Of a stretch of DNA of 64,000 nt, positions 6,843 through 24,552 are shown piece by piece (positions within the stretch are counted from its first letter, which is position 1; every line of letters starts with the position of its first letter). The position numbers and the translations under genes are program-made. Source of the stretch: Escherichia coli (lineage in GTDB: Bacteria; Pseudomonadota; Gammaproteobacteria; Enterobacterales; Enterobacteriaceae); the NCBI RefSeq assembly GCF_024502345.1, contig NZ_JALDNN010000001.1; one strand, given 5' to 3'. Under the pieces are notes generated by a model that saw only the letters and a program-made list of their open reading frames with translations, was not told the origin of the DNA and did no database searches.

Positions 6843-7784
6843 ATGGCGCACTCACACTCACACACGTCCTCACACCTGCCAGAAGATAATAATGCTCGTC
6901 GCTTGTTGTATGCTTTCGGCGTGACTGCCGGGTTTATGCTGGTAGAAGTCATTGGTGGTTTTCTTTCTGGTTCTCTGGCTTTGCTGGCCGATGCGGGTCA
7001 TATGTTGACCGATACTGCCGCCCTGCTTTTCGCTCTACTCGCCGTGCAATTTTCACGTCGTCCTCCCACCATTCGCCACACTTTCGGTTGGCTAAGACTG
7101 ACCACGCTCGCGGCGTTTGTGAATGCCATCGCCCTGGTGGTGATTACCATTTTGATTGTCTGGGAGGCGATAGAACGCTTCCGCACACCGCGTCCGGTCG
7201 AGGGCGGCATGATGATGGCAATTGCCGTGGCTGGGTTGCTGGCAAATCTACTTTCTTTCTGGTTACTTCATCACGGCAGCGAAGAGAAAAACCTCAACGT
7301 ACGAGCAGCGGCACTGCATGTGCTCGGGGACCTGCTGGGTTCGGTTGGGGCTATTATTGCCGCGTTGATTATTATCTGGACCGGCTGGACACCTGCTGAC
7401 CCCATTCTCTCGATACTGGTGTCGCTTCTGGTTCTGCGTAGCGCGTGGCGACTGTTGAAAGATAGCGTGAATGAATTACTTGAGGGTGCACCGGTATCGC
7501 TGGATATCGCTGAACTGAAGCGTCGTATGTGCCGGGAAATCCCGGAAGTCCGCAATGTGCACCATGTGCATGTATGGATGGTAGGCGAGAAGCCGGTGAT
7601 GACGTTGCATGTGCAGGTGATCCCGCCACACGATCACGATGCCTTGTTGGATCAGATCCAACACTACCTGATGGATCACTATCAGATTGAGCACGCCACC
7701 ATTCAGATGGAATATCAACCTTGTCATGGGCCAGACTGCCACCTGAATGAAGGGGTGTCTGGCCATTCACATCATCACCATTAA
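6843..7784 (+). CDS. zitB: Zn(II)/cation diffusion facilitator exporter
   Basis: 313 aa CDF-family membrane protein with His-rich N and C termini. Confidence 0.9.
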
Positions 7785-18345: not shown

Positions 18346-19914
18346 TTAGCGTGCCGGCTGAGTAGTCGTGGAAGACTGCTCAAAGTGATAGCGACCGGTT
18401 TTCAGGCTGCTTGGGCCGAGGCGTGCAAACTTGAACATTAAGAACAATTCTGCCACCAGGAACAGGGTATACAGGCCGCAAATCAGCACCATTGAGAAGA
18501 TGAGATCGCCTGCGGTCAGTGACGAGTTCGCCACAGCTGTCGGCAGCACTTCACCGATAGCCCACGGTTGGCGGCCATATTCAGCCACGAACCAGCCCGC
18601 TTCTACAGCAATCCACGGCAGCGGAATACCGTACAGCGCGGCGCGCAGCAGCCATTTTTTCTCGCCAATGCGGTTGCGGATGACACTCCAGAAAGAGAGC
18701 GCGATGATTGCCAGCAGCAGGAAGCCACACGCCACCATGATACGGAACGCGAAGTACAGCGGCGCTACACGCGGAATGGAGTCTTTGGTTGCCTGTTGAA
18801 TCTGCGCTTCAGTCGCATCAGCCACGTTTGGCGTATAGCGTTTCAGCAGCAGACCGTAACCGAGGTCTTTCTTCATGCTATTGAACTGGTCACGAACTGC
18901 CTGGTCGGTAGAACCAGAACGCAGTTGCTCGAGCAGAGAGTACGCCTTCATCCCGTTACGAATGCGTTCTTCATGCTGCACCATCAGTTCTTTCAGGCCG
19001 ATAACTGGAGTATCCACGGAACGCGTTGCAATGATGCCCAGCGCGTAAGGGATCTGGATCGCAAATTTGTTCGTCTCCTCTTCCTGATCAGGAATGCCGA
19101 ACAGAGTAAAGGCAGCAGGCGCAGGTTGCGTTTCCCACTCGGCTTCAATAGCAGCCAGTTTGGTTTTCTGCACGTCGCCCATTTCGTAACCAGATTCATC
19201 ACCCAGAACAATAACAGACAGAACGGCAGCCATACCGAAGCTGGCAGCGATAGCAAAGGAGCGTTTAGCGAAGGCGAAGTCACGACCTTTCAGCATATAC
19301 CATGCGCTGATACCGAGGATGAACATCGCGCCAGTCACATAACCAGACGCTACAGTGTGAACGAATTTCACCTGAGCAACCGGGTTAAGCACCAGCTCGG
19401 AGAAGCTCACCATCTCCATACGCATAGTTTCAAAGTTGAAATCGGACGCGATTGGGTTTTGCATCCAGCCGTTCGCAACCAGAATCCACAGTGCGGACAG
19501 GTTTGAACCGAGCGCCACCAGCCAGGTGACACACATATGCTGAACTTTACCCAGACGATCCCAACCGAAGAAGAACAGACCTACAAAGGTGGATTCGAGG
19601 AAGAAGGCCATCAGACCTTCGATTGCCAGCGGCGCACCGAAGATATCCCCTACATAGTGGGAATAGTAAGACCAGTTAGTCCCGAACTGGAACTCCATGG
19701 TCAGACCGGTAGCCACACCCAGAGCGAAGTTGATACCAAACAACTTGCCCCAGAACTTGGTCATATCTTTATAAATCTGTTTGCCGGAAAGGACGTAGAC
19801 CGTTTCCATAATGGCCAGCAGGAACGCCATACCGAGCGTCAGTGGCACAAAAAGGAAGTGGTACATCGCGGTCAAGGCAAACTGTAAGCGCGACAGTTCG
19901 ACTATATCTAACAT
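18346..19914 (-). CDS. cydA: Cytochrome bd-I ubiquinol oxidase subunit I
   Basis: 522 aa from [12 protein letters not shown]; ORF-track start is one codon upstream. Confidence 0.93.
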
Positions 19915-20251
19915 CATGACTCCTTGCTCATCGCATGAAGACTCCGAGAGTGAACCCCGTTAGAAAGGGTCACACGCATGCCCCAATACAAAATTATTTG
20001 CTCGCCTCTATCGTTGCCATTTCATCAAAAGAGGAAAAGACAATGATAAAAAAGTTACAAATATGTTAATGAATAAACCAAATTGATCCCGTAATTATAT
20101 TACGCCGCAAAATCCTTACAATAAACAGGTTTTTATTGAGCAAATTTGCATTTTTCGACAGTGATCAATTTATAGCGAAATTGTCACGATCTCACCAATT
20201 TGATCTACGACAATTTATCGTGTTTTGCAGATTTTTTTCAAGAATTAAAAA

Positions 20252-20265
20252 TTGATTTATATCAA
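20252..20265. promoter_or_regulatory. FNR-type palindrome in the long AT-rich cydA upstream region
   Basis: Perfect TTGAT-N4-ATCAA (ttgatttatatcaa) about 340 bp upstream of the cydA start codon. Confidence 0.5.
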
Positions 20266-20719
20266 AACCAACCAAATATGTTAATTATGTATAAACCATA
20301 GATCATTGGTGATTTTATTGTTAATTTATTGTGAAATATTTATGCAACACAATTATTACAATGAAAAGGTATAGATAAAAAACCAGTGTTTTATTTAACA
20401 GAACCGCCCAATCAACTTTTTATAATACCAATTGATTAGAGTAGCCAATTTGTTGCTATTTTACATAACATATTTTTATCAAAGTTAATTGATTGTTGCC
20501 TTTATGAGCACCGACCGTAAGCCCGTTATGTTATTGTTTCATTAGTAATAATCACTTAAATGTATCGATGAAACAGGTATGACTTACCGGGAGTGATTGT
20601 TTCTGAGTGAACAGAGGCCACTTTCGCCTGATAAATGAAAAATGAGCGATTTTTGCAAGTTAGTTTTTCTATAGCCGAGTACGCTCAGCGCCTCGCTTGA
20701 TTACAATGAGGTTGCTGCT

Positions 20720-21664
20720 ATGAGTCCTGATAATATCGGTTCGGCTGTCAATCGCTTCTCAGGTTGGCCATCTAATGATCCTCTAAAAACAGATGAAGAA
20801 TCAATGAAATCACCCGTGACTGTGCAAGTAATAAAGATGATTGCCGCCATCCTTGACCCACATCGGATAGTCGTTGGAATTGATACACTTTATACAACGC
20901 AGCGCGAAACATTTACCTCAGAGAGTCAACAGCTCATTGAATCAGCATTGCAAACACTTCATGTGATGAATTTAAATAATCTGGAAACAAATCGCGATGA
21001 AGAAGGTCACTATCTGGCTTTTGAATATAACGTTGACACCTCTGACAGAATAACCGTTTCTGCTTATAATGAAAAAAAGCCTGGCTGCTATGGCCAATGT
21101 CTTTTAATACAGGATGACGAAACAGACTTATTTAACCTGATAAAAATTAAAATTTTCGAAGCCAGGCATAATTATGTCGCTCAATTGATGAGCGATCCGG
21201 AATTTATGTTCAAATTCAGTTATAGCGCTCAACAAAATAGATTAGAACCTCATCTTCTGGTTCCCGCTTATTTCCCTCTAAAAACAAACGAACCGGTTAC
21301 GCAAGAGGATGTACTGTTACTTTATCGTTTCTTTAAAATGAATGATGATTTTAATAAATTAACATCAGAGGAATACATGAGTATCATGACTCCTCTGATG
21401 AAGTGTGAGCGTAGCGTCCACGACAACAACAGGTATGTGACGGGCAAAGATACCCATCTTCTGGACTATCCTCCTTCTGGTAACCAGATACATTTCCATA
21501 TTTTTCCTGACGAATCAGCAACACTAGTCCTTTATTTTTCAAACAATGACCTTGAATGTTTCGTCTTTGAAAGAGATATTCCTAGCCAGTATCGCTTTTT
21601 CAAAATGTTTACCAATCTGGCACTGGTTATAGATCAGTTAACCGAAGCCAATAAAATACTTTAA
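20720..21664 (+). CDS. Hypothetical protein, 314 aa, low-GC, no recognisable domain
   Basis: Long ORF with GAGG RBS 9 nt upstream; GC visibly lower than flanking core genes; polar Ser/Thr/Asn-rich N-terminus; absent from the K-12 arrangement. Confidence 0.6.
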   Translation: MSPDNIGSAVNRFSGWPSNDPLKTDEESMKSPVTVQVIKMIAAILDPHRIVVGIDTLYTTQRETFTSESQQLIESALQTLHVMNLNNLETNRDEEGHYLAFEYNVDTSDRITVSAYNEKKPGCYGQCLLIQDDETDLFNLIKIKIFEARHNYVAQLMSDPEFMFKFSYSAQQNRLEPHLLVPAYFPLKTNEPVTQEDVLLLYRFFKMNDDFNKLTSEEYMSIMTPLMKCERSVHDNNRYVTGKDTHLLDYPPSGNQIHFHIFPDESATLVLYFSNNDLECFVFERDIPSQYRFFKMFTNLALVIDQLTEANKIL

Positions 21665-21744
21665 TTTTCTATATATCCCTATGGCAAATATTGCTAAACA
21701 ATGCCTGGGGATTAATTTTTATTACTCACGGAAAGATTTAAATA

Positions 21745-22167
21745 ATGATACCATCTCAGATCTCTTTCAATACCCTTCCAGTCAATGCAACATACGCTTC
21801 AGAGACAACAGTTGACACACAAAAATTCTCTGACATCCTCTACTCAGCGGGGTGTTCCCTAAAGGATATGGCTTATCTGAGCAGATGTCTGGCATCAATA
21901 CACCCGACTCTCGCCAAAAACATTTATGAAACAGAAAATCTCAGCGATCAAAAATTACTGCATATTGATTGCCGTAGTACAAATGACATCAAGATAAATA
22001 TCTTTTTTGGTCAGCAACGAGAAGGATTAATTGAAATTAGTTCTGACACAGTTATTTTTTCGATACTGTCTTCATTGATTGACTCCGCCATTTCTAAATT
22101 TCAACATCAAAACCCCGTTAACGGTTCAGTTAATCCTGAACTATTGTATAAGGATTATACTGATTAA
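21745..22167 (+). CDS. Hypothetical protein, 140 aa, low-GC
   Basis: ORF 80 bp downstream of the 314 aa ORF, same strand and same composition; Ser/Thr/Ile-rich N-terminus. Confidence 0.5.
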   Translation: MIPSQISFNTLPVNATYASETTVDTQKFSDILYSAGCSLKDMAYLSRCLASIHPTLAKNIYETENLSDQKLLHIDCRSTNDIKINIFFGQQREGLIEISSDTVIFSILSSLIDSAISKFQHQNPVNGSVNPELLYKDYTD

Positions 22168-22714
22168 ACCCACCCAGTCGCGAAAAATGGCCTGCGTTAT
22201 TGCCAGACGTAATAAAACCGTTGATTAACGTTACTCATACTGGTAGCACCTTCATGTACCTCTCTTTTTTACGAAAAATCAAAAGAGCTAACTAAGGTCA
22301 TAATTCGCATGAATCATTAACCATTTGTTATTTTCAACATTATTTTTACATTAAGCAGAAATGAATTGCAGTGAAATTCGACTTAAATCTTATGAAATGC
22401 ATTTACTCATGGCTAAAACCACGTCACAAAAATGCAAATTAGAAGTAGATCACAATTATCTCAATACATTAAATCAAGTTAATTTTAAAAATTTAACATT
22501 CATGTCATTAGTTGACATAACACACTGAATTAACATGGAAATTTAAAAACACACTTTAAACAATCATTTCCCGAAAGACATTTTGAAAATAGATCAATTG
22601 CAACATTACGGTCAGATAAAGACACTCCTGTGATATTAAACCTGTGCCGTTATGAACGGCCATAAATACGACGTGTGTAACTTATTTTACTCTCTGTCTT
22701 ACAAAGGATTACCC

Positions 22715-23164
22715 ATGAAGAAAGCAACACTTGTGATTGGCGTTATTGGCGCGGACTGCCATGCAGTAGGCAATAAAGTTCTGGACCGCGTTTTTAGCAA
22801 CCACGACTTCAGAGTCATTAATCTGGGCGTAATGGTCAGCCAGGACGAATATATTGATGCTGCCATCGAAACTGGCGCTGACGCGATTATCGTCTCCTCT
22901 ATCTATGGGCATGGCGATATCGACTGTCTGGGCATGCGCGAACGCTGCATCGAGCGTGGACTGGGTGACATCCTCCTCTATGTGGGCGGTAACCTGGTGG
23001 TCGGAAAACATGACTTCGCTGACGTGGAAACCAAGTTCAAAGAGATGGGATTTGATCGCGTCTTTGCCCCAAGTCATGACTTAGAAGATGTTTGTCAGCT
23101 GATGGCCCACGATATCAATCAACGTCATGACGTTGATACTCGTATTCTTGAAGAGGCTATCTGA
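22715..23164 (+). CDS. glmS: Glutamate mutase (methylaspartate mutase) S subunit, B12-binding
   Basis: 149 aa from [22 protein letters not shown] (cobalamin-binding DxHxxG-type motif); RBS aagga upstream; ORF-track start at 22652 is an extension. Confidence 0.85.
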
Positions 23165-24552
23165 TGCAAATCGTCTCTGTCGATATTGGATCGACGTGGA
23201 CCAAAGCTGCCCTCTTCACCCGGGAGGGGGACGCGTTAACGTTGGTTAACCACGTACTGACCCCAACCACCACCCATCATCTGGCGAAGGGGTTTTTCTC
23301 CAGCCTGAACCAGGTGTTAAACGTAGATAATGCCCTCCCCCTGTTAAACAGCGGTGAGGTTGCATTGAAGTATTCCTCCTCTGCCAAAGGTGGGCTGGCG
23401 GTTGCCGCAATGGGATTGGTGCCTTCTATCACCCTGGAAACCGCGAAAGTAACCGCTCACTCTGCGGGGGCTAAAATTGCGCAATATTACGCCTACAAGC
23501 TGAACCGCCGTGATATCCAGGCACTGGAAGAAACGCAGCCCGATATTCTCTTGTTCACCGGCGGCACCGACGGCGGAGAAGAAAGCTACGGACTGAATAA
23601 CGCCCGTGTGCTGGCAGAATCCAAACTCGACTGCGCCATTATTTATGCCGGAAACCGGGATATTCAGGACGAGGTGCAGGAGATCCTCGGGCATAAAGAC
23701 CTGACCATCGTCGACAATGTTCTGCCCGATCTTGACCATCCGAACCCTTTAGCCGCACGCCAGGCTATTTGCGACATATTCCTTAAACGCATCGTTAAAG
23801 GGAAAGGGCTGGATGTCATTGTTGATAAAACAGGCGAAGAACCAATGCCGACACCATGGACGGTCTTTGAACTGGTCAAGGCAATCAGTAACGTCGATCA
23901 CAGCTGGAAAGAGTTCATGCTGATCGACATGGGCGGCGCAACCACCGATGTTTATTCCGCCGGTGCCAACACGCTCTCGCCCGACACCGTTTTACACGGC
24001 GTACCGGAACCCTTCGTAAAACGGACGGTGGAAGGCGATCTGGGAATGCGCGTCTCGGCAGTGGTGGTTGGTGAAAGTGCGAAAGAGTTAGTCAATGTGA
24101 ATTTTGCTCAGCAACCCGCACAGCTGGACGCTTTTTATCATTACCTCCGTCATCTAGTCGCTCATCCCGACTACTTACCCGCAAATGCAGAAGAGAAATA
24201 TTTCGATACCGTCCTGGCCGGACTGTGTGTGGGTTATGCCACCGAAAGACATGCGGGCACCAAAAAAGAGGTCTGCACCTGCGTCGGCAATGTCGATTTA
24301 CAGATGGGACGTGACCTGACAACCGTGCGTAAAGTCGTCGGATCCGGCGGATGGCTCTCGCGTGCCAGTCAGTTCGATATGCATCACTGGTTGAAATACC
24401 GCGAGTTAAACGACGACGGTAAACGCATTCTCTTACCGACCGAATTTGAATATTACCGCGATTCCCGGGGGCTATTACCACTGCTGGCAAACGTCGCCAG
24501 AGTCGATCCGCTGGCCGCCGCGCGCACCAGTATTCAATGCTTAACCCTATAA
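23164..24552 (+). CDS. glmL: Glutamate mutase-associated protein GlmL (MutL-like)
   Basis: 462 aa; start overlaps the glmS stop (ATGA); sits between the S and E subunits as in clostridial glutamate mutase operons. Confidence 0.8.
   Translation: MQIVSVDIGSTWTKAALFTREGDALTLVNHVLTPTTTHHLAKGFFSSLNQVLNVDNALPLLNSGEVALKYSSSAKGGLAVAAMGLVPSITLETAKVTAHSAGAKIAQYYAYKLNRRDIQALEETQPDILLFTGGTDGGEESYGLNNARVLAESKLDCAIIYAGNRDIQDEVQEILGHKDLTIVDNVLPDLDHPNPLAARQAICDIFLKRIVKGKGLDVIVDKTGEEPMPTPWTVFELVKAISNVDHSWKEFMLIDMGGATTDVYSAGANTLSPDTVLHGVPEPFVKRTVEGDLGMRVSAVVVGESAKELVNVNFAQQPAQLDAFYHYLRHLVAHPDYLPANAEEKYFDTVLAGLCVGYATERHAGTKKEVCTCVGNVDLQMGRDLTTVRKVVGSGGWLSRASQFDMHHWLKYRELNDDGKRILLPTEFEYYRDSRGLLPLLANVARVDPLAAARTSIQCLTL

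Follow-up and report, generated by a model that had tools for sequence, protein, structure and literature searches.

Genomic context of the cydA upstream region

The window, meaning the whole 64-kb stretch of Escherichia coli DNA that was analyzed, contains cydA and, divergent from it, a hypothetical ORF of 314 amino acids (ORF314), with intergenic DNA of 26 to 33% G+C between them (Table 1). An FNR-type palindrome is located in this intergenic region, 335 to 348 bp upstream of cydA, and 455 bp separate its end from the start of ORF314. These distances, taken from ORF coordinates, agree with the approximately 340 and 455 bp given in a preliminary description of this DNA. That description had also characterized the divergent ORF as low in G+C, and its content is indeed approximately 35 to 43%, versus approximately 52% for cydA.

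The 1.1 kb around the palindrome matched 5425 of 5426 complete E. coli genomes and was 99.7% identical to the sequence of strain GF3-3. One E. coli match, H25, carries a cat cassette upstream of cydA and was set aside as an engineered strain. Between sucD and cydA, gene content was variable, with mngR-mngA-mngB in K-12 and a TPR-protein gene in LF82 and R3. In the window-type arrangement, two hypothetical ORFs (ORF314 and the 140-amino-acid ORF140) are followed by glmS-glmL-glmE, the gene for methylaspartate ammonia-lyase, and further genes. O157:H7 Sakai has this same arrangement (ECs_0755 to ECs_0767), and its cydA-ECs_0767 intergenic region differs from that of the window at 4 bases. The window-type cluster corresponds to the “glutamate fermentation” cluster with fumD (Kronen and Berg 2015, PMC4682846).

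Table 1. Coordinates of genes and sequence features around the FNR-type palindrome in the window
Feature	Position	Strand	Basis or remarks
cydA, cytochrome bd-I subunit I, the regulated gene	18346..19917	-	523-codon ORF; RefSeq start one codon later
cydA regulatory core common to K-12 (80% identity), including a leader of ~290 nt	19918..20339	-	blastn
ArcA-type repeat pair GTTACAAATATGTTAA in the cydA leader region	20054..20069	+	1 mismatch; orthologous to K-12 cydA3
Second, imperfect FNR-like site TTGATCTACGACAA	20200..20213	none	Scan allowing <=2 mismatches; has 2
P1-like sigma-70 promoter of cydA	20212..20241	-	-35 TTGAAA 20241-20236, 18-nt spacer, -10 TAAATT 20217-20212; consensus scan
Perfect FNR consensus palindrome	20252..20265	none	Orthologue of the K-12 cydAB P1 FNR operator at -53.5; uniqueness, chance, conservation
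ArcA-type direct repeats (TGTTAA-like, 11-bp phasing)	20280..20339	-	Just upstream of the palindrome; orthologous to K-12 cydA2
Distal cydA-upstream DNA, common to LF82-type E. coli and E. albertii but not K-12	20340..20555	none	Alignment
Conserved 80-bp block directly upstream of ORF314	20640..20719	+	Near-invariant in the window, a divergent E. coli haplotype, and E. albertii
Divergent 314-aa hypothetical ORF (ECs_0767 of O157:H7 Sakai)	20720..21664	+	ORF list; RefSeq annotation of near-identical genomes

The FNR-type palindrome, a P1-like cydA promoter, and ArcA-type repeats

The palindrome TTGATTTATATCAA (ttgatttatatcaa), centered at 20258.5, matched the FNR consensus TTGAT-N4-ATCAA at 10 of 10 half-site positions, which bears out its initial description as a perfect FNR-type site. 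It was the only exact TTGAT-N4-ATCAA in the 64-kb window, where shuffled sequences predicted 0.10. Among 20,000 simulated 802-bp sequences with the dinucleotide composition of the cydA-ORF314 intergenic region (33% G+C), a perfect FNR site was present in 0.5%. The extended FNR half-site AATTGAT was found five times in the 802-bp intergenic region (window positions 20082, 20164, 20251, 20431, and 20488) versus 0.58 times expected, and five copies were reached in 0 of 3000 simulations; one copy is within the palindrome, and the others are isolated half-sites.

The P1-like promoter detected by consensus scanning was conserved in an 18-sequence alignment of Enterobacteriaceae. A predicted P1 start near 20205, approximately 7 nt past the -10 element, puts the center of the palindrome at -53.5, as in the published K-12 geometry. 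The second FNR-like site (TTGTCGTAGATCAA in the cydA orientation) is 52 bp from the palindrome, center to center, and overlaps the predicted start, its own center being at approximately -1.5 by arithmetic from -53.5. Two mismatches to the consensus are present in this second site in the haplotype of the window, O157, and GF3-3, versus one in LF82 and in the K-12 orthologue, TTGTTCTCGATCAA. Its right half, ATCAA, was near-invariant across Enterobacteriaceae in the 18-sequence alignment. A further block, GCTATAAATTGATCnCCGTCGAAAAAyG (window 20150-20177, minus strand), lies approximately 30 to 55 nt downstream of the predicted P1 start and ranked with the most conserved stretches across Enterobacteriaceae. 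TATAAA and TTGATC are both present in it, and it may represent either an additional cyd promoter among the five or one more operator.

The ArcA-type repeats upstream of the palindrome comprise two pairs, at 20280-20296 and 20309-20335, and K-12 cydA2 aligned to approximately 20339-20287. TTAACA blocks of this type upstream were conserved across genera in the 18-sequence alignment. Three ArcA regions are given for K-12, namely, cydA1 (770081-770111), cydA2 (770260-770311, predicted), and cydA3 (770526-770556) (Park 2013 supplement, PMC3798270). Both cydA2 and cydA3 fall within the block that K-12 and the window share, and the K-12 counterpart of the repeat pair at 20054-20069 is found at positions 7307-7322 of the K-12 sequence used for alignment (L001). 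The strongest ArcA site of K-12, cydA1, is outside the aligned block, in K-12-specific DNA, and blastn gave no clear counterpart of it in the window. An Rfam scan of positions 19700-22800 returned 0 matches at E values up to 1.

Correspondence with the K-12 cydAB FNR site

In the cydA orientation, the palindrome aligned base for base with TTGATATTTATCAA of K-12 (L001 7111-7124); the half-sites were identical, and the spacers were ATAA in the window versus ATTT in K-12. A blastn search at word size 7 produced a single block, window 20339..19858 against L001 7037..7515, with 80% identity. The homology with K-12 thus ends at approximately 20339, 74 bp beyond the palindrome. Because the palindrome is within this shared block, it is core DNA and not island DNA. 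The preliminary description, which had considered the site probably part of the native cydAB control region (FNR/ArcA) and had proposed K-12 alignment as the way to find the end of the core, is upheld in this respect: the core reaches approximately 20339, the palindrome is inside it, and the site is orthologous to the K-12 P1 site at -53.5. Homology with LF82-type E. coli extended to approximately 20555, E. albertii aligned across the entire 800 bp upstream of cydA, and approximately 3180 genomes aligned only to approximately 20290, at 85% identity.

Within the distal upstream DNA, the stretch 20418-20498 was strongly conserved in the window, the divergent E. coli haplotype, E. albertii, and LF82-type genomes and was absent from K-12. 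It holds a perfect plus-strand TATAAT (20421-20426) and two of the AATTGAT copies, and it could serve as a plus-strand promoter or as a distal element controlling cydA. Candidate distal ArcA sites are located at 20461-20499.

After coordinate conversion, the center of the K-12 palindrome is at 770,339.5, and that of the second K-12 site is at 770,391.5. In K-12, cydAB is directly repressed by FNR through one listed site at -53.5 (Myers 2013, Table 1; PMC3688515), and the summit of the FNR chromatin immunoprecipitation sequencing (ChIP-seq) signal at cydAB is at 770,404 in U00096.2 coordinates (Myers 2013, PMC3688515). The summit is 64 bp from the K-12 palindrome and 12 bp from the second K-12 site.

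The window and K-12 agree in the orthologous position of the palindrome, its half-sites, its distance to P1-like -35 and -10 elements, the presence of a second FNR-like site 52 bp away, the distance of approximately 340 bp to the cydA start codon, and the flanking ArcA repeats. They differ in the promoter core, which is only 69% identical between them, and in the upstream neighbor, which is the co-oriented mngB in K-12 and a divergent hypothetical ORF in the window. The K-12 cydAB P1 FNR site is reportedly treated in work by Cotter in 1997 and Govantes in 2000, and the title of the latter names Fnr-1 and Fnr-2 binding sites; the upstream palindrome is probably the Fnr-1 of that literature. At class II FNR-activated promoters, the FNR site is centered at -41.5. 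The palindrome shares with such promoters the consensus sequence and the FNR protein; unlike them, it would be at -53.5 from the predicted P1 start, out of phase with FNR-activating positions, and its K-12 orthologue acts negatively. We assign to the palindrome, with a probability of approximately 0.93, the role of the already known upstream FNR operator of the main oxygen-regulated cydAB promoter, P1, centered at -53.5.

Conservation of the palindrome

Conservation was assessed in one genome per species by a scan that was anchored on the block coding for the CydA N terminus and was therefore blind to the FNR site, with 700 bp upstream of each cydA examined for FNR-like sites. Of the 15 other Enterobacteriaceae that were informative, 14 had a perfect TTGAT-N4-ATCAA approximately 340 bp upstream of cydA (E. 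albertii, three Citrobacter, four Enterobacter, Kluyvera, Superficieibacter, Pseudescherichia, Escherichia sp. ESNIH1, and two further Enterobacteriaceae), and the fifteenth, Enterobacter sp. Ag1, had the palindrome with one mismatch. Most also carried a second site 51 to 52 bp downstream, and pairs of FNR sites 50 to 51 bp apart were found in Yersinia, Vibrio, and Photobacterium.

In the 18-sequence alignment of Enterobacteriaceae, variation affected the four positions of the spacer and the DNA immediately around the palindrome, and 17 of 18 sequences had the ten half-site positions without change; further conserved blocks comprised the upstream TTAACA repeats, the -10 region, the right half of the second FNR-like site, and a downstream block. 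The four E. coli haplotypes sampled all had perfect half-sites, with three different spacers and promoter core identity down to 69%. As judged from these alignments, invariant half-sites around a drifting spacer are the signature of a functional operator.

The alleles themselves were deeply diverged. Over the 214-bp promoter core, the window was 69% identical to K-12, 87% to LF82, and 86% to E. albertii; its distance from K-12 is thus comparable to that between E. coli and Citrobacter, for which identity was 62 to 67%. These cydA regulatory alleles of E. coli go with the content of the variable sucD-cydA interval, and the leader segment at approximately 19960-20010 was almost unalignable between the window-type and K-12 alleles.

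The divergent ORFs and the glm cluster

Neither ORF314 nor ORF140 had a significant match in Pfam, NCBIfam, PADLOC, PHROGs, or PDB sequences, and the main texts searched contained nothing relevant under ECs0767, ECs0766, or the corresponding Z numbers. ORF314 was retained at full length at 8.7% nucleotide divergence between E. coli haplotypes. Together, ORF314 and ORF140 (20720-22167) form a local hot spot of divergence, with 91% nucleotide identity between two E. coli haplotypes whose flanks were 100% (cydA) and 98 to 100% (glmS) identical. Synonymous versus nonsynonymous codon differences numbered 26 versus 43 in ORF314 and 12 versus 23 in ORF140. The E. albertii homologue of ORF314 had 56 to 67% protein identity and appears to be frameshifted.

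The 80-bp block directly upstream of ORF314 is near-invariant although the encoded protein is only 56 to 67% identical, which suggests that the block, at least 375 bp from the palindrome, is likely the promoter or leader of ORF314 itself. Another invariant block, the 21-bp TTTTGAAAATAGATCAATTGC at 22581-22601, is approximately 115 to 135 bp upstream of glmS. The DNA around it is otherwise diverged among E. coli, three Citrobacter species, and Escherichia sp. ESNIH1, yet all of them share the block, which includes TTGA-N7-TCAA, with a T-N11-A core, and may be an operator for a regulator belonging to the glm cluster. As an FNR site it was rejected, the half-sites being spaced by 5 and not 4.

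In Citrobacter FP75, C. youngae, and C. werkmanii, the glm operon and cydA point directly away from each other, across a gap of approximately 1.2 kb (up to 1222 bp), and the glm cluster is divergent from cydA in Escherichia sp. ESNIH1, across a gap of 844 bp. These Citrobacter and ESNIH1 loci are without ORF314 and ORF140. Conversely, E. albertii has the ORF314/ORF140 pair beside cydA, with no glm genes in the 7 kb examined. Since the cluster and the ORF pair occur separately, they are two separable modules, for both of which the sucD-cydA interval is an old and recurrent location. The term “acquired genes,” used in the preliminary description, is therefore in need of qualification: by these comparisons, the glm and ORF genes did not simply enter E. 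coli at a random place, given the glm genes divergent from cydA in Citrobacter and ESNIH1 and the ORF314 homologue in E. albertii.

Alternative readings of the palindrome

CRP and FNR half-sites are related, and cross-recognition occurs at some promoters, which would favor CRP or a different CRP/FNR family protein, rather than FNR, as the main binder. The palindrome has the exact TTGAT half-site and N4 spacing and is without the CRP core TGTGA-N6-TCACA, and an FNR ChIP-seq peak sits at the K-12 orthologue (Myers 2013, PMC3688515), which together make such a binder scarcely credible. Equally hard to credit is a functionless chance occurrence in AT-rich, H-NS-type DNA. At 26 to 33% G+C, A/T-rich palindromes are commoner, but the local probability is approximately 0.5%, the half-sites are fixed across 69%-identical haplotypes and across genera while the spacer drifts, and the K-12 orthologue is occupied by FNR in vivo (Myers 2013, PMC3688515). 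A chance origin was rejected on the local simulation and the conservation pattern.

A different question is whether FNR bound at the palindrome would form a bidirectional operator, also driving or repressing the divergent ORF314 and perhaps ORF140 and the glutamate fermentation genes. The palindrome is symmetrical and is in a divergent intergenic region, and the pathway encoded by the neighboring cluster is of an anaerobic type and includes an oxygen-sensitive fumarase. A strict consensus scan gave 0 plus-strand promoters in 20266-20720. A relaxed survey of that strand detected no class II FNR geometry (-41.5), the best candidate being a -10-like TATAAA at 20290-20295, which would place FNR near that position, at approximately -43.5. 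LF82 and K-12 lack this element. Each of the three island-bearing haplotypes examined has it, but its preservation in a haplotype of approximately 92% identity is what linkage alone predicts; moreover, it has no -35 element, misses the class II position by 2 bp, and would require a leader of approximately 420 nt. Its neighbor is the invariant ArcA-type box ATGTTAATTATGT, and it falls within the orthologue of the cydA2 region, to which ArcA~P is expected to bind at low oxygen. The palindrome is older than the divergent genes, being conserved in genera without them, while ORF314 and glmS have their own conserved upstream blocks, at least 375 bp away. FNR-like sites with one mismatch or fewer were absent from 20266-23200; 2-mismatch sites near ORF314 and glmS were rejected as unconserved or located inside genes. 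Finally, the cluster was not expressed anaerobically in O157:H7, whose intergenic region is near-identical: strain ATCC 700728 had no methylaspartate ammonia-lyase activity under anoxic growth, and no condition, anoxic included, was found for expression of its cluster (Kronen and Berg 2015, PMC4682846). The suggestion in the preliminary description that oxygen-responsive control could reach the acquired genes thus receives no support from promoter geometry, conservation, the genes’ own upstream blocks, or expression in O157:H7, and we consider a bidirectional operator very unlikely. Similarly improbable is a broader version, in which the cydAB FNR/ArcA/H-NS region would have been co-opted in island-bearing E. 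coli as a bidirectional oxygen switch gating ORF314-ORF140. Such a switch may act through FNR at the palindrome or through ArcA~P relief of H-NS silencing that spreads over the 26 to 33% G+C DNA; transcription of the fast-evolving ORF pair would start, for example, from the haplotype-specific TATAAA at 20290-20295.

Proposed regulation of cydAB and implications

The reading of the palindrome as the cydAB P1 operator places it in a well-studied scheme. In K-12, cydAB has five promoters, of which P1 to P4 are controlled by O2, ArcA, and FNR (PMC3037301). FNR represses and ArcA~P activates, with maximal microaerobic expression (PMC3998891, PMC3688515), and ArcA is thought to act at cydAB by disrupting H-NS repression (PMC3798270). 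By analogy, we infer that this FNR/ArcA/H-NS scheme, including cooperation between two sites, applies to the window haplotype; FNR occupancy and anoxic repression at the palindrome would be as in the K-12 orthologue, from which they are taken.

Without oxygen, dimeric [4Fe-4S] FNR would bind the palindrome and also, with lower predicted affinity, the second site, located 52 bp farther downstream and covering the transcription start. Two FNR dimers, at -53.5 and -1.5, would then be separated by five helical turns, both on one face of the DNA, and would jointly lower cydAB transcription. ArcA~P on the flanking direct repeats would raise transcription by counteracting H-NS on the very AT-rich DNA, and the predicted net outcome is that cytochrome bd-I is maximal under microaerobic conditions. 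Tandem FNR repression sites also occur at other promoters of aerobic respiration, such as that of ndh. Promoters of the ndh type resemble the proposed arrangement in having FNR dimers at nonactivating positions upstream of and over the core promoter and in the lowering of an aerobic respiratory gene under anoxia; they differ in the positions of the sites and in the coregulators, the repression of cydAB being superimposed on ArcA~P antisilencing of H-NS.

Because the second site is weaker and cydA1 has no clear counterpart, the quantitative oxygen response of the window haplotype may differ from that of K-12, and K-12 regulatory data may not transfer quantitatively to approximately 40% of E. 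coli genomes. The invariance of the half-sites across cydA promoter alleles of E. coli that are 69% identical offers a clean natural demonstration of operator constraint.
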